Shown here piece by piece: positions 11,848 to 55,673 of a DNA stretch of 57,729 bases. Source of the stretch: a virus (lineage: Duplodnaviria; Caudoviricetes); IMG/VR virus record IMGVR_UViG_3300042465_001383, positions 1-57,729 of that record; one strand, 5' to 3'. The notes below the pieces were generated by a model. It ran no database searches, was not told the DNA's origin, and saw nothing but the letters and a program-made list of their open reading frames with translations. The translations under genes were made by a program, and so were the position numbers. Positions within the stretch are counted from its first letter, which is position 1, and every line of letters starts with the position of its first letter.

Positions 11848-11857
11848 GGTTAATCCT

Positions 11858-12147: not shown

Positions 12148-13848
12148 TTATGCGTTCTTACCATACTCGTCAACTTTTTCAAGGCGACCTTTGCCACCGC
12201 CTGCCCCGTACTTCATTTTGGGGTAAACCTTACCGCCATCCTTGCGTCCCATCATTGGCATCGGAGCGCCAGGAGGGGGCGGCGTGGGGCCAACACCAGA
12301 CGCACCAGCCATAGCAGCGCCTAGACCTGGCGGCAGCGACATGCGGGGGGGCGAGGGCGGGGGCATCATCGGGGGCGGACCACCAACGGGCGGCATCGGG
12401 GGCATCGGCGGTTGAATACCCATAGGCTTGTTGGCGCTGTGGGGCATTACGTTGATGCTGATGTTCGTGGTCCCCTTGGCACGGCCACCAGTGGCACGGG
12501 CCATGCGGCTACCGTCTTCCTTCTTCGCGGTCTTGGCCGATTCCTTGAAGTCTTGAGCATCAGGCGCGCCTTTGGAGCCAACCTTACGCATCTTTTCCCC
12601 AGAACCGTTCTCAATGCGCTCACGCTTGGCATTGATGTTGGCATAAAGGCCGCCACCATCCTTGTAGCCAGCCGAACCGCCGCAGGCTTTGCAGGCGCAG
12701 TCTTTTTCGTGCATCGCCTTGCCGCCAGACTTATAGCCAGACGCCATCGGGTTCATGGCGGGCATCATGGGGGAAGAAGGCATACCCATGCCCATACCCA
12801 TGCTACCGCCGCCCATCTTGCCAGTGCGACCGCCGTCTTTCATGGTGGACTTGCCAGTTGCCGTGTCAATGATCTGGTGGGCGTAGCTGCCGTAGTTCAT
12901 ATCGTTGCGCTCACGCGATTTGCGCGCACCGTTAAGGGTGTTTGCTTTTCCGACAACCTTGCCAGTTTTTTGGTGAACAATTTGGTATGGGCCTTTTTTT
13001 GGCTCGTCATCACCATTCATACCGCCGCCATCAGCTTTTGCGGTGCGACCGCCAGACTTCATCTTGCCGATACCGTCAGCAGCAAAGTCTGGAACCTTCT
13101 TGCCGTCTTTTTCGACCATCTTCAATTTTCCGCCAGCAGCTTTTGCGGATTGCATGTCATGCTTCTTGTCGGCGCTGGAAGCTTCCCACTCTTTCATGGA
13201 CATGCCGCGCTTGGCTGCCATCTTCTTGTCTTCCATCATGTCCTTGGCAGAACCTTCAAAATTCTCAGCCTTGCCGCCATGCTTGCGGCGGGTCTTGTCT
13301 CCCATGTCGCGCAGGGCTTGACGGCCCTCGTTGGCCTTGTCGGCGCGGGTTTGTGCGTCCAGTGCGGCTTGTCCACGGTCCATCTCAGCCTTGCTGGGGC
13401 GGCCCGACATGTCAGGCATAGGCTCAGACGCTTCGCCAGTTTTGCTGGGGCCAACGGCGTCCAGCTTGGCTGCGCTGTATTTTTTGTAGTTCGGGTCGTT
13501 AGACAGCAAACCGCCGCCAAGTTTGGCAACGCGGCCACCCTTCTTCAGGCCACCAACGTGCTTGACGCCTTCGCGCTCTTCGTTGGCGTCTTTCTGATTG
13601 GTGTTGGCCAGACCGACCTTCTGTTCAAACCCACGCGGGGAGCGTGACAGGTTGGTCTTGGCTTCAGCGCCATCAACCTTACCACCAGCCTTGAACGCGC
13701 GGCGCGAGATCGGGCGCATACCCGTCTTGGCGTCCGCGTTCAGCTTTTCATCTGGGGTCCAAGTGGAGCTATCCACCTTCCCGCCAGAGCTTTCGATCAT
13801 GCTCTGGGCCTTCTTGTTTTTTGCTGCGCGCAGCGCCTTGAAATCCAT
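12148..13848 (-). CDS. Lys/Gly/Met-rich virion-internal polyprotein-like protein with xxxGG repeats
   Basis: 12 copies of [FYMLRK]-[KA]-x-G-G; Pro-rich C-terminal region; head-module location. Confidence 0.75.
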   Translation of the reverse strand: MDFKALRAAKNKKAQSMIESSGGKVDSSTWTPDEKLNADAKTGMRPISRRAFKAGGKVDGAEAKTNLSRSPRGFEQKVGLANTNQKDANEEREGVKHVGGLKKGGRVAKLGGGLLSNDPNYKKYSAAKLDAVGPSKTGEASEPMPDMSGRPSKAEMDRGQAALDAQTRADKANEGRQALRDMGDKTRRKHGGKAENFEGSAKDMMEDKKMAAKRGMSMKEWEASSADKKHDMQSAKAAGGKLKMVEKDGKKVPDFAADGIGKMKSGGRTAKADGGGMNGDDEPKKGPYQIVHQKTGKVVGKANTLNGARKSRERNDMNYGSYAHQIIDTATGKSTMKDGGRTGKMGGGSMGMGMGMPSSPMMPAMNPMASGYKSGGKAMHEKDCACKACGGSAGYKDGGGLYANINAKRERIENGSGEKMRKVGSKGAPDAQDFKESAKTAKKEDGSRMARATGGRAKGTTNISINVMPHSANKPMGIQPPMPPMPPVGGPPPMMPPPSPPRMSLPPGLGAAMAGASGVGPTPPPPGAPMPMMGRKDGGKVYPKMKYGAGGGKGRLEKVDEYGKNA

Positions 13849-13865
13849 GGTGCGATCCTCTGAGG

Positions 13866-16800
13866 TTATCCGGCGTCCCGGTCGTGACCGAGAGCATACA
13901 ACGAAGTGAGGGATAATGCACGTTCGATGTTTTTGGCTATGCCGCCACGGCTCAAGGTTTCTGCCACTGCACCAATTTTGCCTTTTTCGTCTTCCTTGTG
14001 GTCAACAATTCTTGGCGTTTGCTTGGTGGAAAACTCAGAGTTCATGTTTGGCAAATGGGATAGGAAGCGGTTGAGATGTTCAGGGCTGTCAGATGAAGCG
14101 TACCCTTTGAAATTTCCGCTATCCCAAATCTGGGCAACATGTTTGAAGTGCTTCTTGAGAACCCTCTCCATTTCTCCAGGTGGGACTTGGAGGTCATGCA
14201 TACCAACAACGGCGGCTTCTTTGGCTTTTTGCTCGGCTGCAAACTCGTCTTGCTTACCATGCAAGATCGCTGCTGCCTTCTTTGCAATGTCTTCTTTTGT
14301 AAAGAAACGTTCTTTGTAAGCGTCCTTTTTGGCTTCGTTTGCTGCAAATTCGTCTTGCGGCAAGCCTTCACCTGGGACAAACTTTTCTTCGTTGATCAAG
14401 ATACCATGCGGGTGGAGGAGTTCTTTTGCCCTTGCAACCTGTGCGTGGCGGTTGTTGTTCATAAACTGGAAAACCATTGCTTCGTGAGCAACGTCAAACT
14501 TACGATCAGGCGTGTAATACTTGATTGGCATATCTGCGTATGGATTGGGGCGAGGAACCCCGTTTTTGTCATGCAAAATTGGGTCTTCAGTCCACGCTGT
14601 CTGCCCTTCGTCCTCTTTGTTGCCGTAAGCACCAAGGGCATATTCAGCCCCTGGCACTTTGGAGATAGAATGGAAAGATTGATGCATTGATGGATTGGGA
14701 TCAAGTGCAACAGTACGCATACGACCACCAGTCAAAGCACTGATTGACTTATTCAAAGCACCTTCTGATGCCCCAATGTCAATCATATCTCCACCATCGG
14801 GGAAGGTATTGGCGATTGCATGTCCAACGCCTTGCTGAACCTCACGAAACCCAGGGATTGACATGCCAATATGGTCGTCAAACTTGCCAAGATGCTTGTG
14901 ATATTCTTGTGAAAATGGCGAAATTCCAGAAATGTCAAAGGCAGGCTTGTAACCTTCCTTTGACGCTGGCGCGCCAGTCAGACCTGACGTTATGTTGGAG
15001 AAGAAACCTGTAAAATTTCGGCCATTTCCTAGAAGACCGGATGATCCTTCGCCAGAAATTCCTTCCATTCCTTCAGGCTCACTTGGCGCGGCGGGTGTTG
15101 TGTCTCCCCCTTTTGAAAACGCTTGACGTGGTCCCGATACATTGTTTCCAAGTAAGCTAGATGCTCCTTGTCCGACATTTGGCTGAACGGCTTGCGGCGT
15201 TCGGATGCTTTGTTCGAGTTGTGGGTCTGTTTTGAGGCCGTGCTTTTGTGCGAACTCGCGGTCAACCGCTTCGAGCCGTGGGGCGAGAACGCTTGAAACG
15301 AATTCGTGAACATCGGGTCGTCCTGCGGCACTAAGCCTGCGTCTATAATCTTCGCCATTTTTGTTTACCTTCCAGTCGTTTTCAACAAGATTACCATCGG
15401 ACGCGAAGGCGCGTTTTGTTGCAGTGTGTGTGCTTGGAACAGCAGTAGACATTACGCTATCGGTGGCTTTATGAAAACCCCTTTGGTCGTTTTGATGCTG
15501 ATCAGAAAAGTTTAAAATTCTAACCGTTCTGTTGTTAACGGGAATAAGAGATGCACCAGGCGATGTTTTATCCAAAGACTGACCAATGTTTCTGATGTGA
15601 TCATCGGTTAAGTCCTTGTCAAATTGATATTCAATCCCGTTTGCTTTGGTAATTTGAGGATTGTAAAACGGACGGTGATAGCCAACTCCATCTTGCTTGT
15701 GAAGCAAGCCTTTGGCTGTAGCGTAAATGTCCAAAAGATGTTTGGACGGCTCGTCAATATCTGGTTGCTGCAACGCCGCCTTGATGCGAGTAGATGCCAT
15801 CTGGGTATGAGTAGCGGGGTTGGTTTTGCCCTGCCAGTAGCCAGGAGCGTCCTTAGACCCTGGGGACATGATGCCAAGGTATTTTGCCAAAAGATCGTTT
15901 CCGTCTTTGTCCTGCAAAGCCTTGGACGCCATTCCGTGATATTCGGCTTTAGCTTCTGGCGACAAATTTTCAATGCCATTTAGGTGAGCAACATCCTTAC
16001 TTGGGGCAGATTCCCAAGTGATGTGTGCTAAATTCTGGTCCATGAAATCAGAAAAGTCTTTTGCGCTTTCCAGAATATGCTTTCTAGATACCTTCTTGCC
16101 AAGCGCCATATCGCGATGCAGTTCTGCAATCTGGTCTTCCGCGCCCTCATTTGGCGTAAAGCGCGGCTTGCCTTTTGGCCCTATCTGCATTGTGGCCATG
16201 CCCTTGCTGATGGCGGCCTTCTTGGCATCGTCCGCAACACCTTCCATGCGCGTTTTAATGGCCGTCCAAATAGCAGCCTGCACTTGGTGCGGTCGCCATC
16301 CCAATTGATCGGAAAGACGTTTTGTTATTTTTTCCATAAAGTCGTATTTGCCAGACGACCCAATGGCAACATCTGGGAAGCCGAACGCATGTGCCATCCA
16401 AAGGTCTTGCGTTGACCCCTGAAGGCGAGATGGGTCAATGTGAACCATCAGGTTGTTGTAGAAATTGTTGGTTTTGCGGCCTTCAAAAGGAATGCCTTCA
16501 TTCATCAACAAATGGGCTTTGAGGTCGCGATCCGCCGTTGCAATGTTTTCGTAAGATTTAGGCTTGTGGCGGGCAATCAAAAACCTTTTCCCGCTGTCAT
16601 CCAAAGGCACCTTGGTAATGCCAGCGTTTTCGCCACCCAGAGATTTAACATAGTCACTTGACTCTTTGATGTTTTTGAATGTCCGATCACGATCTACGAT
16701 GTCCCCATCCCAAAGCTTGCTGCCAGCTTTGGCGCGGTTGTATGCTTTAATCGCATTGCCAGTGTTAACAGGCACGGTTGTTTGGGGGCTGTAGATGGCA

Positions 16801-17105
16801 ATCAGTTGTGCAAACTTGTCAGCAGCATCCTTGTCACCCCCAACGTATTGCAGGATGCGCTTGGAGCTTTTTTCATACCAATACTTGCCAGGCTTTCCTT
16901 GCTTTGCCAAATCCAAAAGGTCACCGTACATGGCTTGGATTGATTGTTCTGGCGGCAAGGACTGGTATCTCTGATGCATCCTGCCAGTTCTTGTTTCACG
17001 AACCTTTGCAAGCTGATTGGCAAACCCAGTCATTTCTTCTGGGGTTGGCGGCACCTTGGTTGATGGGTTTGTCAGGCTAAGTGCCTTGTTTACAATGCCT
17101 GCCAT
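13866..17105 (-). CDS. Large polyvalent protein: HhH-glycosylase-like domain + middle domain + CmoA-like SAM-dependent transferase
   Basis: WY...A..SPQ..V..N...K..NF..N..D.WM..QA..W; FDDHI..SIPGF...DIGASEG...FQF...EEKF...W..GNF. Confidence 0.7.
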   Translation of the reverse strand: MAGIVNKALSLTNPSTKVPPTPEEMTGFANQLAKVRETRTGRMHQRYQSLPPEQSIQAMYGDLLDLAKQGKPGKYWYEKSSKRILQYVGGDKDAADKFAQLIAIYSPQTTVPVNTGNAIKAYNRAKAGSKLWDGDIVDRDRTFKNIKESSDYVKSLGGENAGITKVPLDDSGKRFLIARHKPKSYENIATADRDLKAHLLMNEGIPFEGRKTNNFYNNLMVHIDPSRLQGSTQDLWMAHAFGFPDVAIGSSGKYDFMEKITKRLSDQLGWRPHQVQAAIWTAIKTRMEGVADDAKKAAISKGMATMQIGPKGKPRFTPNEGAEDQIAELHRDMALGKKVSRKHILESAKDFSDFMDQNLAHITWESAPSKDVAHLNGIENLSPEAKAEYHGMASKALQDKDGNDLLAKYLGIMSPGSKDAPGYWQGKTNPATHTQMASTRIKAALQQPDIDEPSKHLLDIYATAKGLLHKQDGVGYHRPFYNPQITKANGIEYQFDKDLTDDHIRNIGQSLDKTSPGASLIPVNNRTVRILNFSDQHQNDQRGFHKATDSVMSTAVPSTHTATKRAFASDGNLVENDWKVNKNGEDYRRRLSAAGRPDVHEFVSSVLAPRLEAVDREFAQKHGLKTDPQLEQSIRTPQAVQPNVGQGASSLLGNNVSGPRQAFSKGGDTTPAAPSEPEGMEGISGEGSSGLLGNGRNFTGFFSNITSGLTGAPASKEGYKPAFDISGISPFSQEYHKHLGKFDDHIGMSIPGFREVQQGVGHAIANTFPDGGDMIDIGASEGALNKSISALTGGRMRTVALDPNPSMHQSFHSISKVPGAEYALGAYGNKEDEGQTAWTEDPILHDKNGVPRPNPYADMPIKYYTPDRKFDVAHEAMVFQFMNNNRHAQVARAKELLHPHGILINEEKFVPGEGLPQDEFAANEAKKDAYKERFFTKEDIAKKAAAILHGKQDEFAAEQKAKEAAVVGMHDLQVPPGEMERVLKKHFKHVAQIWDSGNFKGYASSDSPEHLNRFLSHLPNMNSEFSTKQTPRIVDHKEDEKGKIGAVAETLSRGGIAKNIERALSLTSLYALGHDRDAG

Positions 17106-17106
17106 A

Positions 17107-19143
17107 TCACTTCCCCTTGGGTTTCAGCGCCAATGTAGCAGCTTTGCCGTCTTTGGTGAAGCGGCGTGTTAGGGCGATGGCGGCAGACACATCACCGCCG
17201 TTGCTAAAAGCAAAATCTGTTTTTTTTCCGTACACAGGGTTCTTTGCATAAACCAGCGGACCAATGTGCAAAGCCTCGTCCGCAGCCATGACAGGCTCTT
17301 GTGTCTCGCGGTCGTAGAAGTACGAGTGCCGCTCTGGGTCCATCCCAACCTGACGCCACTGGGGGTCGTTGTGGATCGTCTGCGACAGCGCAAACGCATC
17401 CTCCGGCGTTGTCTTCTTCCAGTTGCCATGAACGGTGGCGATTGTGGATTTGGGCTTGCCGCTTGCGATGTTCAGCGCGCCCGTTGGGTGGACCCCAAAG
17501 CGCGGGTTGCCGATGTGCGCCACGCTGTCGTAGCCGATCACCTCACCTGCCGTGAAGTCTGTCTTTGGATGGTGAACGGACACCACCCATGTGTTCTTCT
17601 TCTCGTACGCCGGAATGTCGAGGCGCACCGCCACAGGCGTTCCTTCCTCCAGACCTCTTGGAGCAAACGCCTTGGGCTGCTTGTCCTTGGTCAGCGCATC
17701 GTGAACTTGCTCATCGGACGCAGGGGAAACTGGTGCATCGTACGGTGAGACAGGCTTTATCTTGTTGACCATCTCAGCGTGGGCTTCGCGCGAACCCGTG
17801 CCAGCTTTGATCGCCTGTGCAGACGGCCAGAGGGCCTTTTCGCGCAGAGAGCCTGTCGCTGACCCGCCTTCGGCCTTGGTGATGTCGGGGTCGTTGGGGT
17901 CAAACGTGCCTTGGTTGCCCGTGGCGCTCTTTACTTGCTCCGGCTTGAATGCAACGTACTCTTTCGACCCGTCAGGGCGGTGGGCAATGATGCCGTCGAA
18001 GCCAGAGTTGCGGATTGTTTTGTGGATATTCTGCTGACCAAACTGGTTTACCATTGCGCCATGTTGGGTGTCGGTCAGAAACAAGTCTCGAACTGTCGCG
18101 GTGCCGTCATCCAGCTTCTTAGTCAGCTCGGCGGCTCTTGCCTTGTCTTCGTCGTTTATGCCTCCAAGCCACAAGCCCTGCTTTTTTATAGCGTCCTTGA
18201 TGTGGTCGCGCCATGCTGGATGCCGCAACGTATCGTCTGTAAAAGGCTGCTTCATGCTGACGTGCAGCTTCATCACTTGACCATGCGGCTTGGCATCAGC
18301 CTGATCGGCGCGGATGCCTTGGGCAAAGTCGCTTGCAACCTTTGGGCTGTCAGACAGGTAGATTCCAGCGCCGTAGCTGCCATATTCTGAGGGTCTGAAC
18401 GTGCGGAAATCCTGAGCGGCGATGTTTTTGTTAGTGGCCACTTGGTCAATATCAGAGGTCCATTTTCCATCACCGTGATACTTGTGGTCCTCCACAATCT
18501 TGGGCGCGTTACCGTGGTACAGCACCTCCGGCACATCTGGGTGGTTGCCCTGCATGAACGCCACCTTGCCCCCACTTTCGGCGTGGATGCGACCCCCATC
18601 AGCTTTCTTGACTACGATACTGGGATTGATGACGGCCACCCCCATGTCACGCATGGAATTAAAATGGACAGCGTCATAACCAGCCTCTTTTGCCCGTGCA
18701 ATGGCCTCGTTTGCCGCATCCCGCAAGTTTTCCCCTTGGCGCAAGCTGCGAAGCAGCGGTCCCTTCTTTCGACCCGTGATCTGCGAGAACTCCCCTGTGC
18801 CTTCGGTCAAAACTTTTGCATGGCTTGGCAGTTCAAATTGACTGATCTGATCACCATAAAGACGCGCAACATCCTCATGTGGCGTTCCGAAAAGCAGACC
18901 CTCACCGATGCCTCCAGTGATGCTCTCTCCGCTGTCGTTTGTGCCGCGATATAGGTTCATTCCACCTGTATCGCCATTCTCACGCCCACCACCAGCGTGG
19001 ACGGCGCGGGGGACGTTGGGCAGGTATTTGGACGGGGCGATCTGGCCACCAGCGCGAGTGACAGCGGTGCGGGCGCGGGCTTTGTCAAGAAGGCCAGCCG
19101 CTGTCAGCTTGGCAGAACGGATCGCCTTGTCCTTATCCATCAC
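17107..19143 (-). CDS. Polyvalent protein with two ART-PolyVal-like ADP-ribosyltransferase domains and a third domain
   Basis: LYRGT...GYDAV...VINP and LYHG...F..F...G.GIYL.D....A..FA...GFDGI....EYVAF.PEQVKSA.GN.GTFD. Confidence 0.8.
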   Translation of the reverse strand: MMDKDKAIRSAKLTAAGLLDKARARTAVTRAGGQIAPSKYLPNVPRAVHAGGGRENGDTGGMNLYRGTNDSGESITGGIGEGLLFGTPHEDVARLYGDQISQFELPSHAKVLTEGTGEFSQITGRKKGPLLRSLRQGENLRDAANEAIARAKEAGYDAVHFNSMRDMGVAVINPSIVVKKADGGRIHAESGGKVAFMQGNHPDVPEVLYHGNAPKIVEDHKYHGDGKWTSDIDQVATNKNIAAQDFRTFRPSEYGSYGAGIYLSDSPKVASDFAQGIRADQADAKPHGQVMKLHVSMKQPFTDDTLRHPAWRDHIKDAIKKQGLWLGGINDEDKARAAELTKKLDDGTATVRDLFLTDTQHGAMVNQFGQQNIHKTIRNSGFDGIIAHRPDGSKEYVAFKPEQVKSATGNQGTFDPNDPDITKAEGGSATGSLREKALWPSAQAIKAGTGSREAHAEMVNKIKPVSPYDAPVSPASDEQVHDALTKDKQPKAFAPRGLEEGTPVAVRLDIPAYEKKNTWVVSVHHPKTDFTAGEVIGYDSVAHIGNPRFGVHPTGALNIASGKPKSTIATVHGNWKKTTPEDAFALSQTIHNDPQWRQVGMDPERHSYFYDRETQEPVMAADEALHIGPLVYAKNPVYGKKTDFAFSNGGDVSAAIALTRRFTKDGKAATLALKPKGK

Positions 19144-43550: not shown

Positions 43551-43789
43551 GGTTCTTGATTACGCTGAACATGCCATCCCGCAAGGGCGAACTGGTCCAC
43601 CAAGTGATCTGCGAATACCCTGTCAGCAGCATCGAAGAACTTTTGGAAGACCTGAACGAACGCGATTTCATCATCGCTGAAGAGTTCTACCGCAAGTCAG
43701 ACAACGCGGGCTTCTATTCTGTTGGCATGGTTCTGCTGAACACCATGCACATCGGCAAGATCAAGGCCGAGGTTAGCCGCGACAGTTAA
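43547..43789 (+). CDS. Hypothetical protein
   Basis: ATGA coupling; stop overlaps the convergent gene. Confidence 0.65.
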   Translation: MRFLITLNMPSRKGELVHQVICEYPVSSIEELLEDLNERDFIIAEEFYRKSDNAGFYSVGMVLLNTMHIGKIKAEVSRDS

Positions 43790-44850
43790 GCGACAACGCT
43801 GCCGTAGATGGTGCCAGAGTTTGTCACAGTCACGGTGCTGCCGTTCTTGGTGATAGCCGCGCCGCCTGCGCCGCCAGTTGCGCCGTTCGGGCCAGCGCCA
43901 CCCGCAGCACCCCAACCACCGCCACCACCGCCACCACCACCAGTTCCGCCAGCGGCCCCTGCGCTACCGCCACTTCCAGCAGTTTCACTATCGCTTGCAC
44001 CAGCGCCGCCAGAACCAGGTAGGATACGCCCGCCGCCAGCACCAGAGCTACCACCGTTTCTTGTGGATGATGTGCCGTCATTGCGCCATGTACCACCACC
44101 ACCGCCAGAACCACCACCAGAAGACCCGTTACAGTTGTAACCAGAACCGCCGCCGCCAGATGCGCCGATGCCGCCGCCATAGCCTGGGGAACCCATGACT
44201 GTAGCGCCACCAAAGGCCATTGCGCGGGCTTGTAGCGTTTGACCCCCAGAACCGCCCCCTGCGCCCCCGCCACCACCGCCGTACATTTCGCCGTAGTTAT
44301 TCATACCGCCGCCGCCACCGCCACCACCAGCTATGTAAGCGCCGGAGTTGTTCACGACCGACATTGGTGCTGTTGTGGACGAGTTTGTGATGGACAGGGC
44401 TGGGCCACCAGCGCCGCCATTAAATGTAGAATAAACACCACCAGCGCCGCCAGCACCCATGATCGCGCCGTTGTTCACGATGGTGAAGCCGAGAGGGTAA
44501 GACCCGTTGATGGTTAGTCCAGCGACCCCTGTAGATGTGGCATAAGCAGTGACGCCAGCGTCAATGGTCACTTGAAAGAACCGATTGCCGTCCCAGCCAG
44601 CGTTCGTCAGAAGCGCGGCCACATCAACGTTGGTCGAGTTGGACGATATGGTAACGATGAAACTCTTGTTTGCACCGTAGAAGTTGCTCAGAGAAATGGC
44701 ACCAGAGGTTGGCACGTTTGTGTTGTTGGCGGTGACGTAGGGGCCACCACGGTAGTATTCGGACATGTTGATAGGGTTTGCCCCCCCGAACTCCGTTTGG
44801 ACTTCAGCAAGGGTAATTGGCGCACCATTTCCGCCCGATGGTAGTGTCAT
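43786..44850 (-). CDS. Glycine-rich tail-tip adhesin-like protein
   Basis: LP..G.I.L..VQ.EFGG.NPI.MSEYY N-terminus; N.G.I.GGGGGG polyglycine repeats. Confidence 0.75.
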   Translation of the reverse strand: MTLPSGGNGAPITLAEVQTEFGGANPINMSEYYRGGPYVTANNTNVPTSGAISLSNFYGANKSFIVTISSNSTNVDVAALLTNAGWDGNRFFQVTIDAGVTAYATSTGVAGLTINGSYPLGFTIVNNGAIMGAGGAGGVYSTFNGGAGGPALSITNSSTTAPMSVVNNSGAYIAGGGGGGGGMNNYGEMYGGGGGGAGGGSGGQTLQARAMAFGGATVMGSPGYGGGIGASGGGGSGYNCNGSSGGGSGGGGGTWRNDGTSSTRNGGSSGAGGGRILPGSGGAGASDSETAGSGGSAGAAGGTGGGGGGGGGWGAAGGAGPNGATGGAGGAAITKNGSTVTVTNSGTIYGSVVA

Positions 44851-47358: not shown

Positions 47359-50300
47359 TTATTGAACGAAGTAACGGCCAAGGCCGCTTGAGACATTGTG
47401 CTGGCCAGGCAGAATGGTGAAGATTGCTTCAAGGGCAGCTTGTGCATCCGCCTGATCCTTGAAGGCACCTTTGTTTGCGCTGTCAAAGAAATCAACAACA
47501 AGTTGCTTCACTTCTGCATCAGCTTCTGCGTCTCCGGCGTACTTCAAGAGTTCAGCAATGTTTGCTTTTTCACCCTGATAAATGTTACCAGCTTGCTTGT
47601 TGAACAAAGCATCCGCACCAGTCAAATCCTTAACCACACCTTTTTGAGCGCGATAAAGGTCGTTGATATATTGGCCTTTTTCGTATGCCAACATGTTCCG
47701 TGTCAGCATCTCTGCTGTTATCTCAGCGGCAGCGGTTGCGTTTGAAGTGATGTCTGGGAAGATGTTCTTGTTTTGCAGGTACAGTGAAGCCGCCGCCGTG
47801 TCTGCGGTCATCTGGTCTGCGCTAAGGGACGAAAGTTTGTTTAGCAGCGCCTGAGATGTCGCTGCGCTTCCATCGTACTGGATACCAAACGTGCCAGCCA
47901 ATTGGGAGGCAAGACCTTCGTAGGTTGATATGACGCCGCCTAGTGGACCCAGATCATTGGCTGCCGCTGCCTTGGCAACTGTTGCCGCCAGTTCGTTCGT
48001 ATTTCTGAAGGCAAGGCTTGATGACGCCGTGCCAGCGTCTGCCGCAGCACGAGATGCTTCGGCCCGCTCAATAGCGGCTTGCCTTTCAATCTGGTTCATA
48101 GGCATACGCGACCTTGTGTCTGCTTGAGCAATGTAAGCTTGTTCGGCATCGCCTATGGGGAAGGTTCCAAAACTTTCATACGGCGAAACCACTTGAGGAA
48201 TTGGTAGGCCAGCATCTGGAAGTGGTGACGTAGTGATTTCAGGCGCTGGCGGAATTGGTCGCGCCACAGGGCCTTGATCCGGCGGCAATGTTGCGCCAGA
48301 CAATATTTCCTCTGGTGTTGCCGTTGTAAGATCAACGCCCCTGCTTGCTGCGCCACCCACAATGCTACGGACCACTTCATCCATAGCAACCCCACCCATT
48401 GCAGGCCCTGCCGGATTAACCATAAAATCAGCAAGATTTTGAACACTGCCATTTTCAAGCGGGATAAGAGACATTCCAAGGTTCTGATCATAGTATATCG
48501 AGTTCTTGAGGAACTGGAGGGCTTCGGTTGTTGTTTGCGCCTTGGTAAGCCCAATGTCAGCAGCTTGCTTCTGTAGGCCCTTATAGGCTTCTGCGCCGCC
48601 ACCGATGCCAGACAGGATGCCACCTAGCGGAGAAATTGTTTGGGCTTCAGCCGCCTTGCCAACTCCCATCAGCACTGACAACAACGCATTCTGGTTCATA
48701 GAGCCATCACGGTTATAGAAGAACTTTCCAAGGAAGTTACGGTCTTCGTAGGGCTTGACGCCGCCAGTGTAATCCTGCGCGTCCATAGTGGAAATCTGCG
48801 TGTTCAGGTTGTCGCCGCCAGCTACGCCAGACGACAGCCCGTGGGTAACAGGCATTGCCTCAAGGTCAGCAGGAGATAGTCCGCCAGCCGCAGCCAGCCT
48901 TTCAAAACGTGGGCCACGGGCCTGCATGATGCCGTAGGTACCGTAGCCGCCACCAAGGGTGTTGCGCGCGTTGGGATTAATGCCCTCGCCAGCTTCGACG
49001 TTGAAACGACCGATCATGCCAGCAATCTGGGTGTCGTCATTCCAGCCTTTTTCCTTGTAGTGGTTATACAGCGCCAGTTCGTTGGGCATCAAACCTTCGC
49101 CGCCGTTTTGGATGGCGGTATAGACGCGGTTTGCGTGTTGGATAGACGCAGCGTCCCCAACACCTTTGCCCGCCATTTCATAATAATCGTTAGCCCCAAC
49201 CGCAGCTTCGGCTGGCGTGTTGTACTTGCGGGACGTGTAGTTTTTGAACTCTGGTTCTGACATGCCATAATTCGCTTGCGTAAGAAGCGGTATGCCACGG
49301 TTTGGCTGTTGATCAGGACGGAGACGCGGGATCACGCCATTTGATGTGGTCGTGGGTGGCGTTACGGCGGGCGTGGTTGCCCCAGCACCAACACCACCAG
49401 CGGGCGCTTCGGCGCTAACTGGAACAACCATAGGGTCATTTGAAGTGCGGCCCCGAAGCTCCAACTTACGGGTAATGGGGTTCATAACAAGCCCACTGGG
49501 TACACCTCCACTCAGCGCATACCCATGCCGCTGATCAATCGCGCCGCCACGGGCAGCGCCCATAGCCATCGTGATCATCTTGATGATTTCTTCTGTGCCT
49601 TTTCCTTGGCTTTGCTCTGGCGGATCGGCAATCATCAACTGGCCAACGGGAAGGTCGGCAGCGGGGACGTAACCTGCGCCGCCAATGCCGCTCTGCGTGT
49701 AGGTGCGCGGCCCAGCAACACCGCCGCCGTCCGCATAACCCTCAACGGCACCGCCAGACGCAAAGCCCAGCCAGTTGCGCGGGGTCTGGGTCGTGGTGGT
49801 GCTGCCCGAAGCCGCGCCAGTTCCCATTGCAATGTTGGCAAGGAATTGTGCCGTCTGGAATGGGTAACCCTTTTCTTGCATGAACTGGTTGATCATGGCG
49901 TCTTTGCTGGCCTGTTCGGTCTGCTGTTGCATGGTGCCAGCCGCGATCTTGGCCTGTGCGCCCTGTAGGCCCAACTGTTGAGACTGAGCGCCAAGTTGGG
50001 CCAACTGCGACCCGCCCTGCAACTGGCGCGCCAGATCGGCCTGAGAGGCCCCAAGAGCCTGCGTGTAGCCTTGGTTCATAATGTCGGCCATCGTCTTGCC
50101 GTAAGCCATTTGGTTCTGCTGTTGCAGGTTGGCTGCGGCAATGCCCGCGCGATCACCACCGAAGGCCCCAGACGAAATGGCGTTGCCAAGCGCGCCGGAC
50201 TGGGCTTGCTCTTGCTGCTGGCGCAGGTATGCCCCAGTGGTGTCTGCCACGTTTTTGATATAGGGCGACATGTAGTTGTCGATGCCCTCGTAGGCAGGCC

Positions 50301-50553
50301 CCAAGCCTGCCTGCGTGGCTTCCGTGGCTTGGGTCATGTACGGCAGATAAGACCCAGCCGTGGCGTTGATGTCGTTGAAGCCAGCGTACTGTTGGGCGTT
50401 CAGTTGGGCGACATAATCTGACGCAGTCTTGCCAAACGCCTCGTATGGCGTGGCGGCAGCGGTTTCCGCCCGCTTGTTGACAGCGTTGTAACGTTCCAAA
50501 ACCTCTGGCGGGATGGTAACCTTAGAGGTCGTTGTTGCCTTCTTGCCGCCCAT
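47359..50553 (-). CDS. Internal virion / ejection protein with lysozyme-like domain
   Basis: MGGK..TTT start, YM.PY...V, AFGG.R, Gln-rich; AG..G....E.G..NP.A...GI.Q..G.R motif. Confidence 0.75.
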   Translation of the reverse strand: MGGKKATTTSKVTIPPEVLERYNAVNKRAETAAATPYEAFGKTASDYVAQLNAQQYAGFNDINATAGSYLPYMTQATEATQAGLGPAYEGIDNYMSPYIKNVADTTGAYLRQQQEQAQSGALGNAISSGAFGGDRAGIAAANLQQQNQMAYGKTMADIMNQGYTQALGASQADLARQLQGGSQLAQLGAQSQQLGLQGAQAKIAAGTMQQQTEQASKDAMINQFMQEKGYPFQTAQFLANIAMGTGAASGSTTTTQTPRNWLGFASGGAVEGYADGGGVAGPRTYTQSGIGGAGYVPAADLPVGQLMIADPPEQSQGKGTEEIIKMITMAMGAARGGAIDQRHGYALSGGVPSGLVMNPITRKLELRGRTSNDPMVVPVSAEAPAGGVGAGATTPAVTPPTTTSNGVIPRLRPDQQPNRGIPLLTQANYGMSEPEFKNYTSRKYNTPAEAAVGANDYYEMAGKGVGDAASIQHANRVYTAIQNGGEGLMPNELALYNHYKEKGWNDDTQIAGMIGRFNVEAGEGINPNARNTLGGGYGTYGIMQARGPRFERLAAAGGLSPADLEAMPVTHGLSSGVAGGDNLNTQISTMDAQDYTGGVKPYEDRNFLGKFFYNRDGSMNQNALLSVLMGVGKAAEAQTISPLGGILSGIGGGAEAYKGLQKQAADIGLTKAQTTTEALQFLKNSIYYDQNLGMSLIPLENGSVQNLADFMVNPAGPAMGGVAMDEVVRSIVGGAASRGVDLTTATPEEILSGATLPPDQGPVARPIPPAPEITTSPLPDAGLPIPQVVSPYESFGTFPIGDAEQAYIAQADTRSRMPMNQIERQAAIERAEASRAAADAGTASSSLAFRNTNELAATVAKAAAANDLGPLGGVISTYEGLASQLAGTFGIQYDGSAATSQALLNKLSSLSADQMTADTAAASLYLQNKNIFPDITSNATAAAEITAEMLTRNMLAYEKGQYINDLYRAQKGVVKDLTGADALFNKQAGNIYQGEKANIAELLKYAGDAEADAEVKQLVVDFFDSANKGAFKDQADAQAALEAIFTILPGQHNVSSGLGRYFVQ

Positions 50554-50558
50554 TCCGT

Positions 50559-51041
50559 TTATCCTTCAGTCAGGCCCGTTTTGGCGTTGTACAGGAAGTA
50601 GACCCCAGCCGGAGCGCCGAACACACGTTCGTAGAGACGGATTTTCGCCTCAGTCCTTGTGTTCGACAATACCCCAATTGCCAGAGGAATACCAAGTTTT
50701 TCTGAAACGGTCTTCGCCCACTCCGCAAGCTTGCGGGCGCGACCGCCTTTTGCCGACCGAAATTCTGGCGCGACATAGATTGCCTTCTCGTCCAAGATGT
50801 TCTCGTGGCTATACCACATGGACCCGATCCTCAAGATAATCATGGCCTCCAGTGGTTCGCCCGCATCGCCCCCGATGACGCCAACCAAGCCCATCTGCTT
50901 GGTAAGCGCCGCATATATGTGGTTCTGCAACATTGGAATGTCCGGCTCCACGAAGGCATTTTCGCGGGTGGCGTCGATGGACATACGCATCACTTCGTTG
51001 AAGTCTTCAGCAATCCCCTCGCGGACGTAGATTTGGGTCAT
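50559..51041 (-). CDS. GNAT-family acetyltransferase-like protein
   Basis: YV.PEFR...G.A.KL..WA; RLYER. Confidence 0.75.
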   Translation of the reverse strand: MTQIYVREGIAEDFNEVMRMSIDATRENAFVEPDIPMLQNHIYAALTKQMGLVGVIGGDAGEPLEAMIILRIGSMWYSHENILDEKAIYVAPEFRSAKGGRARKLAEWAKTVSEKLGIPLAIGVLSNTRTEAKIRLYERVFGAPAGVYFLYNAKTGLTEG

Positions 51042-51047
51042 TTATAC

Positions 51048-52064
51048 TTAATCCTTTTTAGGACCAGGCAAGCTTTGCAGTGTTTTGATGGTTTTCTGAC
51101 GCATCTTTTTCACGAAAGCATCCAAGACCTTGTGTCCGTGGTCCAAGTCGCCACCACCGATATGTACAACATCTTCCGGCGGAATAACATACTCCCCGCC
51201 AGCGGCCACAATTGGCACCCCATCAGTTGCACCACCAGCAGCCATTCCAAAGAAACTGCCAACTTTTGATTGACCCTGATCGTCCTTTTGAAACCCCTTG
51301 CCCGCCGTGTAGCCAGCCACTGGCCCAATGCCCATCCCAGTCCCCACAATCGCACCAAGCAAAGGCTTCATCTTGTTGAAGAAGGTACCTTGATATGGCG
51401 TTTCTGCGGGGCCTGCGGCGGTGCCAGCGGCGGGGGCCACAACGCCAGTGGTTGGACCCCTGCGCGAAGCGTTCATGCCGCCGCCGTTGAACATGTCGCC
51501 AAGGTTTGTGTAGCCAGCGCCCTTGCCGCCACCGTTGATCATGTCCCACAGGCCCGTGTAGCGGTCGGCCTGTGCGGGTGCGCTGCTGGTGGAAACCTGC
51601 GTGTTCATGTTGTTGTTGCCCCGATCTGGCGCGGCAACAGGACGGGACTGGGGACGTACCACTGGGTTAGGACGCGCCGCTGGCGCAGGATTAGCAGCCC
51701 TTCCCATATCAGCACCGCCACCACCAGTTGTTCTATTGGCTGCCTGACCACTGTCAGCGCCCCCACCACCAGCCTTGCGCGGCGCGGATACGCTGTATGG
51801 CAGGCCCTTTTCACCGTAGGGCGTACCCTTAGTGATGTTTTTGACGCTGAAGATGTCCTTGGCGATCTTGAAGCCCGCCATGCTGTTGCCTTCGCCCATC
51901 GCCGAGATGATGTCGGCGGGGATGACGTAGGAGCCAGAGGCAACGTGCATCGGCAGGTGGTCCGTGCGGCCCGCCACAGAGCTATGGATGGCACCCTTGT
52001 GGACCTTGCCCCCAGTGGCGCGGGCGGTGCGGAGGGCTGCCGCTGCGACTTGCTTTTGAGACAT
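51048..52064 (-). CDS. Virion-module protein with duplicated GG..D..P....G[ES]YVIP domain
   Basis: GRTDHLPMHVASGSYVIPADIISAMG and GGATDGVPIVAAGGEYVIPPEDV..IG; start re-called to 52064. Confidence 0.7.
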   Translation of the reverse strand: MSQKQVAAAALRTARATGGKVHKGAIHSSVAGRTDHLPMHVASGSYVIPADIISAMGEGNSMAGFKIAKDIFSVKNITKGTPYGEKGLPYSVSAPRKAGGGGADSGQAANRTTGGGGADMGRAANPAPAARPNPVVRPQSRPVAAPDRGNNNMNTQVSTSSAPAQADRYTGLWDMINGGGKGAGYTNLGDMFNGGGMNASRRGPTTGVVAPAAGTAAGPAETPYQGTFFNKMKPLLGAIVGTGMGIGPVAGYTAGKGFQKDDQGQSKVGSFFGMAAGGATDGVPIVAAGGEYVIPPEDVVHIGGGDLDHGHKVLDAFVKKMRQKTIKTLQSLPGPKKD

Positions 52065-52068
52065 CTCG

Positions 52069-52416
52069 TTATCCTTCCGAGTACGATACGACAAGGGTCA
52101 TGCCCGTGCCGGGGACCACTACCAGTCCGTTGTTGTAGGGCATGTTGATCACTGTGACGCCAAGGAGGTTATCCACAACGGCAAGGGCGTTGGTCAGGGA
52201 AGTGGCAATGTTGCTGTCGTAGATCATGGCGTCAGTCGATCCGGCCACAATCACGCTGACAGACGCCAAGCGGCCCTGCCCAGACGACACCAAGGCAGTG
52301 GCGGTTAAGGTGTTTGACCTGATGGCCCCCTGAACCTTGAGGTAAGTCTGACCCACGCCATTGATGGCGGTGACGATGTTCTTTGCGGCGGTAAGAATGT
52401 CTGAGAGCGATGACAT
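52069..52416 (-). CDS. Small virion protein
   Basis: Coupled to the nozzle gene; helical N-terminus, beta-rich C-terminus. Confidence 0.65.
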   Translation of the reverse strand: MSSLSDILTAAKNIVTAINGVGQTYLKVQGAIRSNTLTATALVSSGQGRLASVSVIVAGSTDAMIYDSNIATSLTNALAVVDNLLGVTVINMPYNNGLVVVPGTGMTLVVSYSEG

Positions 52417-54929
52417 CAGAATTTCCCATCAGGTTGGTAACGGTATCGGATGTTTCCAAGCCGCCAGAATGAGTTCAGGTCGCTGCTTTCAACCCTGATC
52501 GCCACAAGCCTCGCGCGGAACCTTGGGGTGACAAAGTCGGTGCCTTGCGTAACCGTGAAGGAATACGTCCGTGGCGTGTCGCCAGGGTAGTCTACCGTGT
52601 AGAATGTGATGGTCACGGTGGCCCCTTGGGTTCCATTGTAGAGGCCCCACTTCATGTCCGGCCACACCTGATCCAAGAAGGTCTTCAGTTCGCCATCTTG
52701 AATGGCAAAGTAACCCGTCTGGAAAAACGAGTTGATCGGCGCACCATCGGCGTTGTTCGACGTTTCGTGCTGGTAGATGTTGTAATCGCCACCAGCGCCA
52801 ATCGGCGGGCCGTTCACGCCTTGGTCAATCCACGCCGTGCGGGTCAGTGTGCCAAAGTCCCATTGATTTGTCAGGGCGTTGTACTTGACGTATTTGGTTG
52901 CAACACCGCCGGACCCAATGGTGGGGTAATACCAAGAAATCTCACCAAAGCGAGAGTTCGGGGCGCACACCACGTTTTGCCAATAGGTTGTGTCAATGTC
53001 TTGGAAGATCACATCCCAGATCGGGCATTGGACGGGTTCCACACCAGAACCCGACAGCTTGAAGAACTGGCTTTGGCTCATCCAGTAGACGGTGCCAGCC
53101 AGCGTTCCGGCGGCCTTCCGGCCCACCAAGCCACAGCCAGACGCAACTTCGTTGAACGAGTAGACCAGCGGCAGGTTGATGTATTGCATCGACCACAGGG
53201 CAAGGTCGGTCCACAGCAAGCCCTGTTGCGGACCCTGAATGGCACCGACAATCTTGGAACCCTTGGGGATACGATACGAACCCGCTTGGTTGGTGACCGT
53301 GCCAACCCAATTGGTGAAGTTGCCGACATCACACCACCGCACAAGCAGTGGGTCTTGGAAGCCTGTGAATGTGGAGCCGAAGGCGATGATCTGGCGCTCT
53401 GGCATGGACACAAAACAGCCTTCGTTGACCAAAGGTGCATTAGGCACAACAACCGCGTGACCACTCGTATCTGACGGGTTCCAGTAAAAAATCTCCCCAG
53501 CGTGGGGCGATGCGATCAGATATTCACCCCAGTTGTCCAGCGCCCAGTCTGGCTCGGTAAGCGTGGGCATTTCAAAGCCCCACGCCGTCACGGTGATTGT
53601 CGTCCCCGTATCTGTAAACACGCCAGCAACGGTTATGACAAAAGTGCTGGAAGACGTACCAGCCGTGCCGCTGACAACCGTGTAAGTGCCATTAAAGTTT
53701 GTTGAACTGCTGACGGTGACGCGGGTTCCGGCGGGAACATAGACATTGGTTGGCAACGTGACGGTTGCCGTGGTGCCATTTCCGACAATGGTGATACCCG
53801 TGTAGACCCTGCCTGTGCCAGTGAATACAACTCCAGTGCCGTACCCGCCGTCCCCGTAGCCGCCAGCGCCATAACCAATCGGCGGTGTCGTCGGCTGTTG
53901 GCCAATGTAGTAATTTATCCGCGACAGGCCGCTGTTCATTTTGTAGGTTGTGGCGTCTGCGGTAACGGTTCCAAAGACAGTTGCAGCGCCAGGGTTGCTG
54001 GCCAGCGTGTAGCTGAACGATCCGGCGGAGGACGCCGTGACGGTGTACGTCCCATTGTAGCCAGCGGGGGTCATGCCAGCCACGACCACCGAGGTGCCAA
54101 TTGGAATGATCGCAGACCCACTTACGCCGATGGTGGCAACCGATGCCAGCCAACTTGCGGATGTGATGGTCAGGACGTTGGTTGGCGCGCTTGCTGCGGC
54201 AATCGTAAAGGTGCTGCTGTTTGTAACCGTTGTGACAATATAGTTCCCAAACAGAGAAAGGCCGCCCACGTTTGTGGATACCAAAACTGGAAAGGTAGAC
54301 CCGACAGCATACCCGTGGTCGGCCAATGTGACAGTTACCGTCTGAGTGGACGGGTTGGTTGTCGTCTTGAAGACAGGGGTAGCGCCGCCATTGGAGACGC
54401 TTGATGTGGCTAACGTTGGCGTTCCGATGACATTCTTGGCAAAGATGCTGTATGTGTTTGCACCATTTTGCTGGCATGGGTAAAACCCAAACAGCACAAG
54501 ACCGCCCACGCTGACCTGCGTCTGAATGTAGATTGAGTCGTACGATGAAACGTTAGAGTTGGTGTCTGTGATGACAACTTCCGAACTTCCGCTGACGGTG
54601 GTGAAGTCGGTTGTTATGTTGGCCGTGTAGTATTGCGGCGATATGTTGATGCCTGTGCCGCCGCTTTCGCTGGCAAACAAAGAGTTGTCAGCCCCAATTG
54701 CCAGATACTTGTGGGTGTTGATGTCGGACCATGCGTGGAGAGCGCGAACAGTGTTCCACTGCGCGTTTTGAATGAACCGTGTCCAGCCGCCAAGCTTTTG
54801 GGGCAAGCCTAAACCCTGCCGATCTGGCATAAAGCGGATCAGGTTGCTTTCAGAAACAGCAGCTTCGTTCAGGGCCGGAGTGCGGTTCTGATCAACACCT
54901 GGGATAAGCTTTAGGCTTGCATGGGGCAT
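52416..54929 (-). CDS. Tail nozzle / DNA stabilisation protein (P22 gp10-like)
   Basis: PG......RF..G.P.K.GGW, W.LDNWG..L, DP..VRW.D, QAG, WTD, W..G.L.RTAW, WR.G..R....PDG. Confidence 0.8.
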   Translation of the reverse strand: MPHASLKLIPGVDQNRTPALNEAAVSESNLIRFMPDRQGLGLPQKLGGWTRFIQNAQWNTVRALHAWSDINTHKYLAIGADNSLFASESGGTGINISPQYYTANITTDFTTVSGSSEVVITDTNSNVSSYDSIYIQTQVSVGGLVLFGFYPCQQNGANTYSIFAKNVIGTPTLATSSVSNGGATPVFKTTTNPSTQTVTVTLADHGYAVGSTFPVLVSTNVGGLSLFGNYIVTTVTNSSTFTIAAASAPTNVLTITSASWLASVATIGVSGSAIIPIGTSVVVAGMTPAGYNGTYTVTASSAGSFSYTLASNPGAATVFGTVTADATTYKMNSGLSRINYYIGQQPTTPPIGYGAGGYGDGGYGTGVVFTGTGRVYTGITIVGNGTTATVTLPTNVYVPAGTRVTVSSSTNFNGTYTVVSGTAGTSSSTFVITVAGVFTDTGTTITVTAWGFEMPTLTEPDWALDNWGEYLIASPHAGEIFYWNPSDTSGHAVVVPNAPLVNEGCFVSMPERQIIAFGSTFTGFQDPLLVRWCDVGNFTNWVGTVTNQAGSYRIPKGSKIVGAIQGPQQGLLWTDLALWSMQYINLPLVYSFNEVASGCGLVGRKAAGTLAGTVYWMSQSQFFKLSGSGVEPVQCPIWDVIFQDIDTTYWQNVVCAPNSRFGEISWYYPTIGSGGVATKYVKYNALTNQWDFGTLTRTAWIDQGVNGPPIGAGGDYNIYQHETSNNADGAPINSFFQTGYFAIQDGELKTFLDQVWPDMKWGLYNGTQGATVTITFYTVDYPGDTPRTYSFTVTQGTDFVTPRFRARLVAIRVESSDLNSFWRLGNIRYRYQPDGKF

Positions 54930-54932
54930 CTG

Positions 54933-55673
54933 TTAGCCTCGTGTTGGGCTGGCAACGGTTGCCGGACCTTGGGACGACCATGCCGCGCTTTCGAACTTCT
55001 TGCGGGCCTCTTCGACACCAGCCGACTTCAACAGCAACTGGTACTGGTTTTCGTAGCTCTGCGCCATCTGTGGGTCGTCGCTTTCTTTGCCAAAGTTCCG
55101 CTGGTAGGCTGAGATGTAGATCATCGACGCCATCACCAGAAGGTCGGGCAAGTACTGGCTGATGAAGGTTGTCGGCACAGCGGCAGCCAGCGGCGCTGGG
55201 CGGATCGTGCCAACCACTTCAACGTAATAGTCCACATCAGGCACGGGTCCGACAAGGAACAGCGTGTCGTTGAACGGCACAAAATACTTCGGCTGGCCCT
55301 GATTTGGTGGCAGTGACGACCCGTAGACCGCATCCAAGAACTCTTTGGTGGTGGGCATCAGCGGGGTGCGGGTTGCAAGGTCGGGGTCAATGTCACCAGC
55401 GGGGGTGATCAGGTTGATCTGTTCGCTGACCACGAAGGATGTGCCGTTACCCAAGTCTTGCGAAAATGACAGGTTCCGATTGCCCGCCGACAACTTGTAC
55501 CCCAAGCCGTGCAGAGACACGGACGTGAACAACAAGTCCAGATCGCGGCAAATGCGAAGGTTGGCATAGTCGATCATCATGGGCAGGATGGCCAAGAAGT
55601 TTGGGTCATCCTCCGCCACGACCGCCATCTGTGCGATCTGCGTCTTGTATGTGGTGTAAGTCAAGCCAGCCAT
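54933..55673 (-). CDS. Head-tail adaptor protein
   Basis: TY......I....A..RI.R.L, G.PKY, GP.PD..Y.VE, PDLL..AS; directly upstream of nozzle. Confidence 0.7.
   Translation of the reverse strand: MAGLTYTTYKTQIAQMAVVAEDDPNFLAILPMMIDYANLRICRDLDLLFTSVSLHGLGYKLSAGNRNLSFSQDLGNGTSFVVSEQINLITPAGDIDPDLATRTPLMPTTKEFLDAVYGSSLPPNQGQPKYFVPFNDTLFLVGPVPDVDYYVEVVGTIRPAPLAAAVPTTFISQYLPDLLVMASMIYISAYQRNFGKESDDPQMAQSYENQYQLLLKSAGVEEARKKFESAAWSSQGPATVASPTRG

Follow-up and report, generated by a model that had tools for sequence, protein, structure and literature searches.

A duplicated, undescribed module in a putative ejected internal virion protein of a podophage, with motif-level similarity to tape measure proteins

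The tape measure protein of phage lambda, gpH, is cut in a Gly-rich region into gpH* (about residues 1-710) and gpHC, and the study that describes the cut states that neither its site nor its catalyst is known and that residues 818-849 of the Ur-lambda gpHC bind gpI at the tail tip (PMC12617516). In podophages, the genes of the ejection proteins form a small operon with a first member of ~200 amino acids (aa), and the gp14-like proteins are typified by four to five (at least two) predicted transmembrane helices (PMC8954989). A third class, the polyvalent proteins encoded beside virion genes, has been predicted to be packaged and injected (Iyer et al. 2017, PMC5512222). The gene considered here, called the target below, lies at positions 51048-52064 on the minus strand of a viral record of 57,729 nucleotides (nt), IMGVR_UViG_3300042465_001383. 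This whole stretch, which is the DNA that was analysed, is referred to as the window; it is a complete podophage genome of ~58 kb.

The target protein is proposed to be an internal virion (ejection) protein of this podophage, in which a duplicated module forms a docking and exit handle that relatives use to carry effectors, a proposal to which we give an even chance of being correct. The module is duplicated and extremely conserved, its gene occupies a fixed slot, it is fused to other domains in relatives, and it is linked to tape measure proteins at the level of motifs; presence of the target in the virion, docking in the channel and ejection are what we infer. The two modules, each of ~45 aa, would probably pack into one small pseudo-dimeric domain, and this paired domain would be the constant handle by which the protein is placed in the particle, in or at the portal-nozzle channel, and by which it leaves through that channel when the phage infects. 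Any sequence fused N-terminal to the module pair, or inserted between the modules, would travel as cargo, which in relatives would consist of ADP-ribosyltransferase, NUDIX, GNAT, GP88 or DUF7178 domains. The proposal places the target among the injected virion proteins of phages, as a protein defined by an undescribed module.

The target translates, free of internal stops, to a 338-aa open reading frame (ORF), P0001, with the following layout:

51048..52064, minus strand: P0001, the whole ORF, 338 aa plus stop, a putative ejected internal virion protein
52072..52078, minus strand: Shine-Dalgarno-like GGAAGGA, 7 nt upstream of the ATG, read from the sequence
52008..52064, minus strand: residues 1-19, short N-terminal helix ending in RATGG, from the alignment (AF2 helix at residues 3-16)
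51840..52007, minus strand: residues 20-75, N-type module H.G.IHS.VAGRTD.LP...SGSYVIPAD..SA.GEGN..AGF, from invariant columns; predicted beta-hairpin and two helices
51780..51839, minus strand: residues 76-95, PYG-repeat spacer, equivalent to the entire inter-module spacer of short-form relatives
51246..51779, minus strand: residues 96-273, hypervariable Gly-rich low-complexity insertion, pLDDT below 50
51051..51245, minus strand: residues 274-338, MAAGG and the C-type module TD.VPIVAAGGEYVIP....IG.GD...GH..LD.FV, followed by a long basic helix and the LPGPKKD end, from alignments
51192..51194, minus strand: codon of Glu291 (of GEYV), invariant in the C-type module and also Glu in gpH and in the tape measure copies

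The two modules, at residues ~30-72 and ~276-318, are homologous, as a sequence-only reading of this DNA had proposed, and their length is ~45 aa. The relationship is recovered by blastp of residues 5-95 against residues 268-338 (21 identities in 61 positions, E 1e-7, for a search space of these two pieces only), by hhalign, when the sub-alignments of the two modules from 29 homologues are compared (P 9.4e-6 over 42 columns at 33% identity), and by two hidden Markov models (HMMs), one of 168 N-type and one of 198 C-type modules, which in the window each match the copy of the opposite type (E 0.0035 and 0.0011). No other ORF of the window is matched by the module HMMs at E<=10. The shared aligned core is [ST]-D-x-[LV]-P-x(5)-G-[SE]-Y-V-I-P-x(6)-[MI]-G-x-G-x(4)-G-x-K. 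The translation bears out the earlier description of copy 1 as GSYV and copy 2 as GEYV (GSYVIP at residues 44-49, GEYVIP at residues 290-295), and the repeats reported in the linker are present (GGGGAD.G.AAN at 99-110 and 114-125, YT.L.DM.NGGG at 169-180 and 185-196). The spacing P....G[ES]YVIP given earlier is to be corrected, for five residues, not four, separate the conserved Pro from G[ES]YVIP; and the statement that each copy comes directly after an xxxGG motif holds for copy 2, which follows MAAGG, but not for copy 1, which starts 13 residues past RATGG.

A third module was sought in the 1064-aa protein of the window, where GGAGYVPAADL is module-like by eye, but this segment has no HMM match at E<=10 and was discarded. 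The module also occurs in distant phages: once in a 672-aa protein with a Pro/Thr-rich linker, where it is C-terminal (L126:3465-5483), and twice at the C-terminus of a 639-aa protein of MW202545 (L165:4282-6201), in the forms GDYV and GEYV. This last pair of forms suggests that an acidic residue may be ancestral to both copies of the module.

The ATG of the target is at 52062-52064, and the stop of the 115-aa gene upstream lies 4 nt before it. The public gene call, P0002 (309 aa), begins at a GTG 29 codons inside the ORF, which cuts off 51978-52064 and removes conserved residues. Since residues 9-28 show little or no variation among 29 homologues, the longer ORF adopted in the sequence-only reading is the correct one, and the start of P0002 is too late. 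Residues 1-19 are, as judged from the alignment, the remnant of a longer motif, MPL..GSS...IS.NI, carried by most relatives.

At least 1901 metagenomic homologues (protein clusters) were found at E<=0.001 among 8000 scored candidates, and none of the 120 among the matches listed has a Pfam domain or a name beyond 'hypothetical protein'. P0001 itself has no match in Pfam at E<=0.1, in PHROGs at E<=0.01 or in NCBIfam, and a clear homologue was found in one of 50,697 phage records, the 61-kb metagenome-assembled phage MW202675, which encodes a 193-aa version. Alignments of 29 and 40 members show modules with almost no variation and a linker that cannot be aligned. No other part of the gene cluster is as well conserved as the two modules: across 78 loci the median identity to the window is 90.7% for the N-module and 85.9% for the C-module, against 78.9% for the adaptor, 65.5% for the GNAT protein, 64% for the 115-aa protein and 56.3% for the nozzle. 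The linker has a median identity of 39%, and at least 80% of it can be aligned in only 29 of these 78 loci.

Attempts to attach a name to the module were negative within their scope. A sequence search of the PDB with the family alignment gave chance matches only (E 0.62 and 1.7), and the ESM Atlas returned only unnamed viral clusters, the nearest named entry being crAss_CARG1 at 0.81, a score reached by a third of shuffled proteins, so that it serves as a lead only. Likenesses seen by eye to LysM, to EF-hand or RTX loops (G.GD..G) and, in the N-module, to an H-D-S order are supported by no family match. Among the papers listed by a search on tape measure C-terminal motifs none describes the module, and the external domain lists of Iyer et al. 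2017 could name it; among those listed for MinM2, Pag-Yong1 and Pra-JY27 none is relevant.

The position of the gene provides the first line of evidence on function, and it is part of the context that the sequence-only reading overlooked, along with the fusions to effector domains. The window encodes a large terminase, a portal, a major head protein, a primase, an SU10-type adaptor, a nozzle-like protein and tail fibres; among the 28 of its ORFs that were scanned (small ORFs are only partly covered) there is no tape measure protein and no protease, which agrees with the earlier description of a stand-alone gene in a phage that lacks both. The genes that surround the target are the following:

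54933..55673, minus strand: adaptor protein (Pfam SU10_adaptor, E 5.3e-13)
52416..54929, minus strand: nozzle-like 837-aa virion protein (phrog_3287, E 2.9e-59); the MW202675 homologue is annotated 'phage stabilization protein'
52069..52416, minus strand: 115-aa gene upstream of the target, no Pfam or PHROG match; between nozzle and target in 78/78 loci
50559..51041, minus strand: GNAT acetyltransferase, constant 3' neighbour of the target (phrog_1249; weak Pfam GNAT matches)
47359..50553, minus strand: 1064-aa gene like those for DNA-ejection proteins or internal virion protein D (phrog_4287, E 2.7e-8); the MW202675 homologue has 1185 aa and is annotated 'internal virion protein D'

Along the minus strand the order in the window is adaptor, nozzle, 115-aa gene, target, GNAT, 1064-aa gene, 652-aa gene, 180-aa gene and fibre, and the portion from the adaptor to the ejection-like gene has the same order in MW202675. 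In 78 loci on viral contigs the nozzle, the 115-aa gene and the target are present in all 78, the adaptor in 75, the GNAT gene in 67 and the 1064-aa gene in 58, where absences are not told apart from contig ends. The gene order is kept in 18 further complete loci of a sister group, and among 55 metagenome loci the GNAT gene follows the target in 31 of the 32 that are at least 6 kb long. The slot after the tail genes is where podophages keep their ejection-protein operon (PMC8954989), and it therefore supports an ejection-protein reading of the target. In its operon position, after the tail genes and before large ejection proteins, and in the size of its short forms (~160-200 aa), the target resembles the first ejection protein of the T7 gp14 type (and P22 gp7). 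Unlike T7 gp14, it has no sequence-family match and no predicted transmembrane helices, and its size reaches at least 1548 aa with enzymatic cargo.

The stop and start of the module gene and the GNAT gene sometimes overlap, and the GNAT product may be a packaged effector or a modifier of the neighbouring protein. The idea that the GNAT gene is cargo split off from the target was dropped, the best blastp match between the window GNAT and the GNAT domain fused in P0139 having an E value of 2.1. Two contigs, of 90.6 kb (L045/L046) and 110.9 kb (L191/L193), carry the target locus twice. The two copies in the 110.9-kb contig share one orientation and are separated by ~58 kb, as would fit a ~58-kb genome assembled as a concatemer; those in the 90.6-kb contig point in opposite directions, which such an assembly does not explain.

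The second line of evidence comes from the proteins in which the module pair is joined to recognisable domains. The size of the target gene product spans 161 aa to at least 1548 aa, with short forms of 161-203 aa, and the spacing between modules in 88 ORFs (window included) is 67-73 residues in 48, 85-87 in 3, 139-143 in 8 and 194-347 in 29. Among 117 candidates, the C-module was found at E<=0.01 in 61 proteins of 593-2000 aa, of which 15 have precomputed Pfam domains (ART-PolyVal in 7, NUDIX in 3, GP88 in 3, DUF7178 in 2 and YhdP in 1). Rescanning with hmmscan confirmed a precomputed domain in all nine proteins rescanned, in eight of them above the Pfam cut-off; the DUF7178 domain of P0172 scores 25.7 bits against a cut-off of 27. 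In 15 sequences that were read, the common layout is an N-terminal MPL..GSS motif, one or more domains split by linkers resembling [KR]-A-x-G-G, and the adjacent module pair at the extreme C-terminal end. The exceptions are P0123, with NUDIX between its modules, and P0145, with ~940 residues including GP88 between them, and cargo in this position suggests that the site of the Gly-rich insertion in the window protein is a second cargo site. In locus L171 the usual slot, with the nozzle gene on one side and the GNAT gene on the other, holds a 964-aa form (P0143). The window protein has no recognised domain, and its cargo would be limited to the Gly-rich, mildly hydrophobic low-complexity segment. 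That the module pair is fixed at the C-terminal end, or else brackets the cargo, suggests a role in targeting rather than that of an effector.

The relatives resemble the polyvalent proteins of Iyer et al. 2017 in that they join ART-PolyVal, NUDIX, GNAT and unknown domains in a single chain whose gene lies among virion genes. Unlike polyvalent proteins, the window protein does not combine two disparate activities, though its gene lies among late and virion genes, and the module pair matches no Pfam LPD family. Two further comparisons are functional analogies only. The capsid targeting sequence of T4 is an N-terminal signal, cleaved off, that brings cargo into the particle. The C-terminal encapsidation region of the N4 virion RNA polymerase is a constant part that does the same, according to PMC5512222.

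Three genes directly after the portal in the window (12148-19143, minus strand) resemble genes for injected polyvalent or internal proteins and are without the module. They encode a 678-aa protein with ART-PolyVal and Phage_L5_gp82, a 1079-aa protein with DUF7178 and a methyltransferase-like PHROG, and a very basic 566-aa protein with 12 [KR]..GG[KR] motifs and a 45-aa phrog_16028 module (GGLYANI.AK...); each ends ~20-30 residues past an xxxGG motif. In other viral contigs (loci L106-L160) the sequence MPL..GSS...IS.NI.E....GHP..QA.A.AL heads many ORFs of ~130-250 aa, with or without a GGLYANIHAKQ module, and these small ORFs often lie some kb downstream of the portal gene. The N-terminal MPL..GSS motif may be a second virion-targeting signal, of which the window protein keeps only the second half.

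The fixed slot also has a reading in which nothing is ejected: the target would be a fixed component of the tail, retained in the particle, that plugs the nozzle structurally or helps to assemble it, with the fused enzymes displayed at the tail tip. The gene stands directly after the nozzle and 115-aa genes in every locus, the conserved LPGPKKD end suggests a fixed partner, and gpHC is still attached to the tail tip of mature lambda virions (PMC12617516). Against this reading, ART-PolyVal, NUDIX and GNAT domains act on cytoplasmic targets, according to Iyer et al. 2017 (PMC5512222), and such cargo would be senseless on a retained tail part. In addition, half of the window protein is predicted to be disordered, and a fixed structure would hardly accommodate a linker whose length ranges between ~20 and ~300 residues. 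A retained tail component is accordingly considered a rather improbable explanation.

Structure prediction is consistent with a small paired-module domain. The full-length P0001 is mostly predicted to be disordered (AF2 pLDDT 46.8), and a natural 163-aa short form, modelled with AF2 from 40 aligned sequences, gives a pLDDT of 73 and a pTM of 0.64, with 80-93 in the modules (73-91 over the N-type region and 87-93 over the C-type region). In the short form each module is predicted as a beta-hairpin followed by two helices. When the N-module and C-module are presented as separate chains, the complex score is 0.35 against 0.00 for the best control, which is classed as 'weak support'. Of 80 solved complexes 58 attain this mark, as do 2 of 110 mismatches, and scores <=0.60 occur in only 7 of those 80 and in both of these mismatches; at least 94% of contacts recur between runs, and the partner pLDDT is at least 64. 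Of the pseudo-dimer with one catalytic Glu that the sequence-only reading had suggested, the packing of the two modules receives weak support from the predicted complex. Foldseek against the PDB gave 0 matches at E<=0.001 (best E 2.3), the absence of a match leaving the fold open, and VIA-align found 0 of 48,161 chains at Z>=5 (best Z 3.0). In BFVD, three proteins were matched at E<=0.001, all uncharacterised and from uncultured phages, and tape measure entries appear only at E 3.8-5.1.

The third line of evidence is the similarity to tape measure proteins, which had been proposed from recall and proves to be real at the level of motifs. In lambda gpH (J02459) the module lies between FATGG and YATGG, at about 733-785. 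Comparison of the family with the whole of gpH by hhalign selects gpH residues 718-771 against the C-module (P 0.0078, probability 5%), blastp finds 8 identities in 18 positions, in register, and the C-module HMM matches gpH 742-771 with E 0.0034 (Z=1). A tblastn search with the 71-aa C-module against the 50,697 phage records matched 44 of them at E<=10, one being MW202675. Among the other 43, the gene that is matched is annotated as a tape measure gene in 15, from four groups of phages unrelated to one another (Gordonia 5, Stenotrophomonas 4, Mycobacterium 4, Arthrobacter 2); a further 17 lie in one cyanomyophage structural protein, 3 in MinM2-type cyanophages and 1 in MW202545, and 7 are spread across various other genes. 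In six of these matches that were read, the full motif is present every time, including the upstream h-A-x-G-G and a [ST]-D-x-[VI]-P that lie outside the blast alignments. By HMM (Z=1) the same six have E values from 6.4e-6 to 1.4e-12, which overstate the significance because the sequences were preselected by blast; tape measure modules score 4-21 bits against the C-module HMM.

Taken as a pattern, the C-terminal region of tape measure proteins in lambda-family phages and other siphophages has h-A-x-G-G, [ST]-[DE]-x-[VI]-P, G-E-[YFH]-V, a helix, G-x-G and a helix in common with the C-module, in register. The module is thus, on the reading of these motifs, common to many tape measure proteins, and it belongs to no named family: within gpH the Pfam matches extend over 54-256 and 627-701 only, and the target matches no Pfam tape measure family (Tape_meas_lam_C/TMP_2; PF09718) at E<=0.1. 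TIGR01541 does cover gpH 472-813, and scores 448.7 bits with gpH itself, but neither P0001 nor the 163-aa short form matches it at E<=10. A search for homologues of gpH 715-800 returned proteins 99-100% identical over the region in all 120 among the matches listed.

In tape measure proteins the module stands in a protein of the DNA exit channel that leaves first, near Gly-rich and mildly hydrophobic stretches. Unlike tape measure proteins, the target has the module duplicated, and it stands alone or ends proteins that carry effectors, in a podophage with no tail tube and without a long coiled-coil ruler. Two other podophage-like lineages have the module in a comparable setting, at the C-terminal end of a protein encoded between the tail genes and those of large internal proteins. 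In MW202545 this is the 639-aa protein with its two modules, which an SLT protein follows, and in Synechococcus phage MinM2 it is a 294-aa protein, followed by a 2803-aa RelA/SpoT protein. An unnamed and widespread module of ~45 aa would in this way link siphophage tape measure proteins with podophage internal and polyvalent proteins, both of which need to sit in the DNA exit channel and to leave through it, and its presence in both classes suggests a common docking and exit device across tail types. In lambda, gpH ~690-817, the region that contains the module, belongs to gpHC and is unresolved in cryo-EM (PMC12617516). The module therefore offers a concrete, mutable candidate region in that part of gpHC, with relevance to the cleavage of gpH.

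The same similarity can be turned towards proteolysis, which is how the sequence-only reading took it when it proposed a protease or trans-acting reader of xxxGG motifs. In the form considered here, the module would catalyse or direct cleavage at the preceding Gly-Gly, in cis or in trans, through the invariant Asp of TD.VP and the Glu of GE[YF]V, freeing cargo domains from polyvalent proteins and, in lambda, cutting gpH into gpH* and gpHC. An h-A-x-G-G does precede every module that was read, the acidic pair is conserved from podophage to tape measure proteins, and the Gly-rich region in which gpH is cut lies directly before its module (PMC12617516). In polyvalent relatives, none of 45 [KRAY][AKRS]xGG motifs falls inside a Pfam domain, against ~8.5 expected from domain coverage, and in the window it is in the putative injected proteins that such motifs cluster, the 566-aa protein having 12, the 1064-aa protein 5, the 678-aa protein 4 and the target 3.

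Nevertheless, Gly-rich linkers between domains can be explained without a protease, and no peptidase family was matched in Pfam, NCBIfam or PHROGs, the protein has no HExxH, and the fold searches (Foldseek best E 2.3; VIA best Z 3.0) gave no match, a result that leaves a peptidase-like fold open. The Foldseek check suggested with the earlier proposal found no PDB match at E<=0.001. A 45-aa hairpin with two helices is very small for a catalytic unit, and the N-type copy, which lacks the Glu, is the better conserved of the two. In MinM2 and MW202545, two independent lineages that bear the module, the neighbouring proteins show no enrichment of the GG-linker motif (the 2803-aa protein, for example, has 4, and its shuffled versions have a mean of 2.3), so that h-A-x-G-G looks like the module's own N-terminal edge. 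The T5 tape measure protein, for its part, is cut after Arg rather than at GG (PMC10038345). The protease idea is clearly improbable on this evidence. A more specific version, in which h-A-x-G-G with GE[YF]V would be a minimal self-processing element, triggered by assembly, common to siphophages and podophages and cutting at the upstream Gly-Gly, is a long shot; were it correct, the module would be the agent of the cut from gpH to gpH*, and in these podophages it would free effectors from GG-linked polyvalent proteins during assembly or after injection.

The hydrophobic stretches near the module invite a further possibility, that it is an end piece acting at the envelope after ejection, either by anchoring the protein in the periplasm or at a membrane (for example by binding peptidoglycan or the surface of a membrane) or by nucleating a trans-envelope conduit, as has been supposed for the leading end of tape measure proteins. 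A mildly hydrophobic Gly-zipper-like segment lies at residues ~231-256 of the window insertion, where the highest Kyte-Doolittle mean over 19 residues is 1.25, at residue 235, and so under the transmembrane threshold; in independent lineages similar stretches directly upstream of the module recur at gpH ~691-720, in the tape measure protein of Stenotrophomonas phage DLP_3 and at the N-terminus of the 294-aa MinM2 protein. Several tape measure proteins also have the module beside a segment resembling a cell-wall hydrolase, and in Gordonia phage Soos the copy is followed by an NlpC/P60-like segment (by eye). The short forms of 161-203 aa, however, are without any hydrophobic segment, which means that hydrophobic association is not a trait of the family, and Pfam scans detected no LysM, SH3 or other wall-binding family. 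An envelope-acting end piece is unlikely as a separate explanation, and it is compatible with the ejection-handle reading rather than exclusive of it.

Several points weigh against the ejection handle itself. The sole clear homologue in the 50,697 phage records is a metagenome assembly, so that presence in the virion is putative for every member. The family matches no ejection-protein family in Pfam or PHROGs, and the 19-residue Kyte-Doolittle mean stays below 1.6, peaking at 1.25 for the window protein and at 1.00 for the short form. The link to gpH is weak when taken alone (the hhalign probability being 5%), and the tape measure matches in the tblastn search have E values of ~2-9 each. The window protein carries no enzymatic cargo, and strong conservation with invariant Asp, Glu, His, Arg and Thr would equally suit an enzyme or a metal site.

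Uncultured freshwater podophages of a large clade (at least 1901 protein clusters) keep the target gene in one fixed place, where, if the ejection-handle reading is correct, a constant C-terminal handle is combined with a changing effector cargo. Such an arrangement would be a natural system for studying, and perhaps for engineering, the delivery of proteins by phages into bacteria.

Three other genes of the window were recorded in passing. On the minus strand at 43786-44850 is a gene for a 354-aa tail-fibre-like protein with 30% glycine and 14 GG dipeptides per 100 residues, which has weak matches to a Gp38-type adhesin and to phrog_2056. At 11458-11994, also on the minus strand and between the polyvalent cluster and the head genes, is a 178-aa protein whose C-terminal half is GroES/Cpn10-like (Pfam E 1.1e-4, phrog_3188 E 3.7e-7). 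An HNH endonuclease gene (phrog_1492, E 3.9e-24) lies at 3788-4285 on the minus strand, among the late genes near those of the tail fibres.

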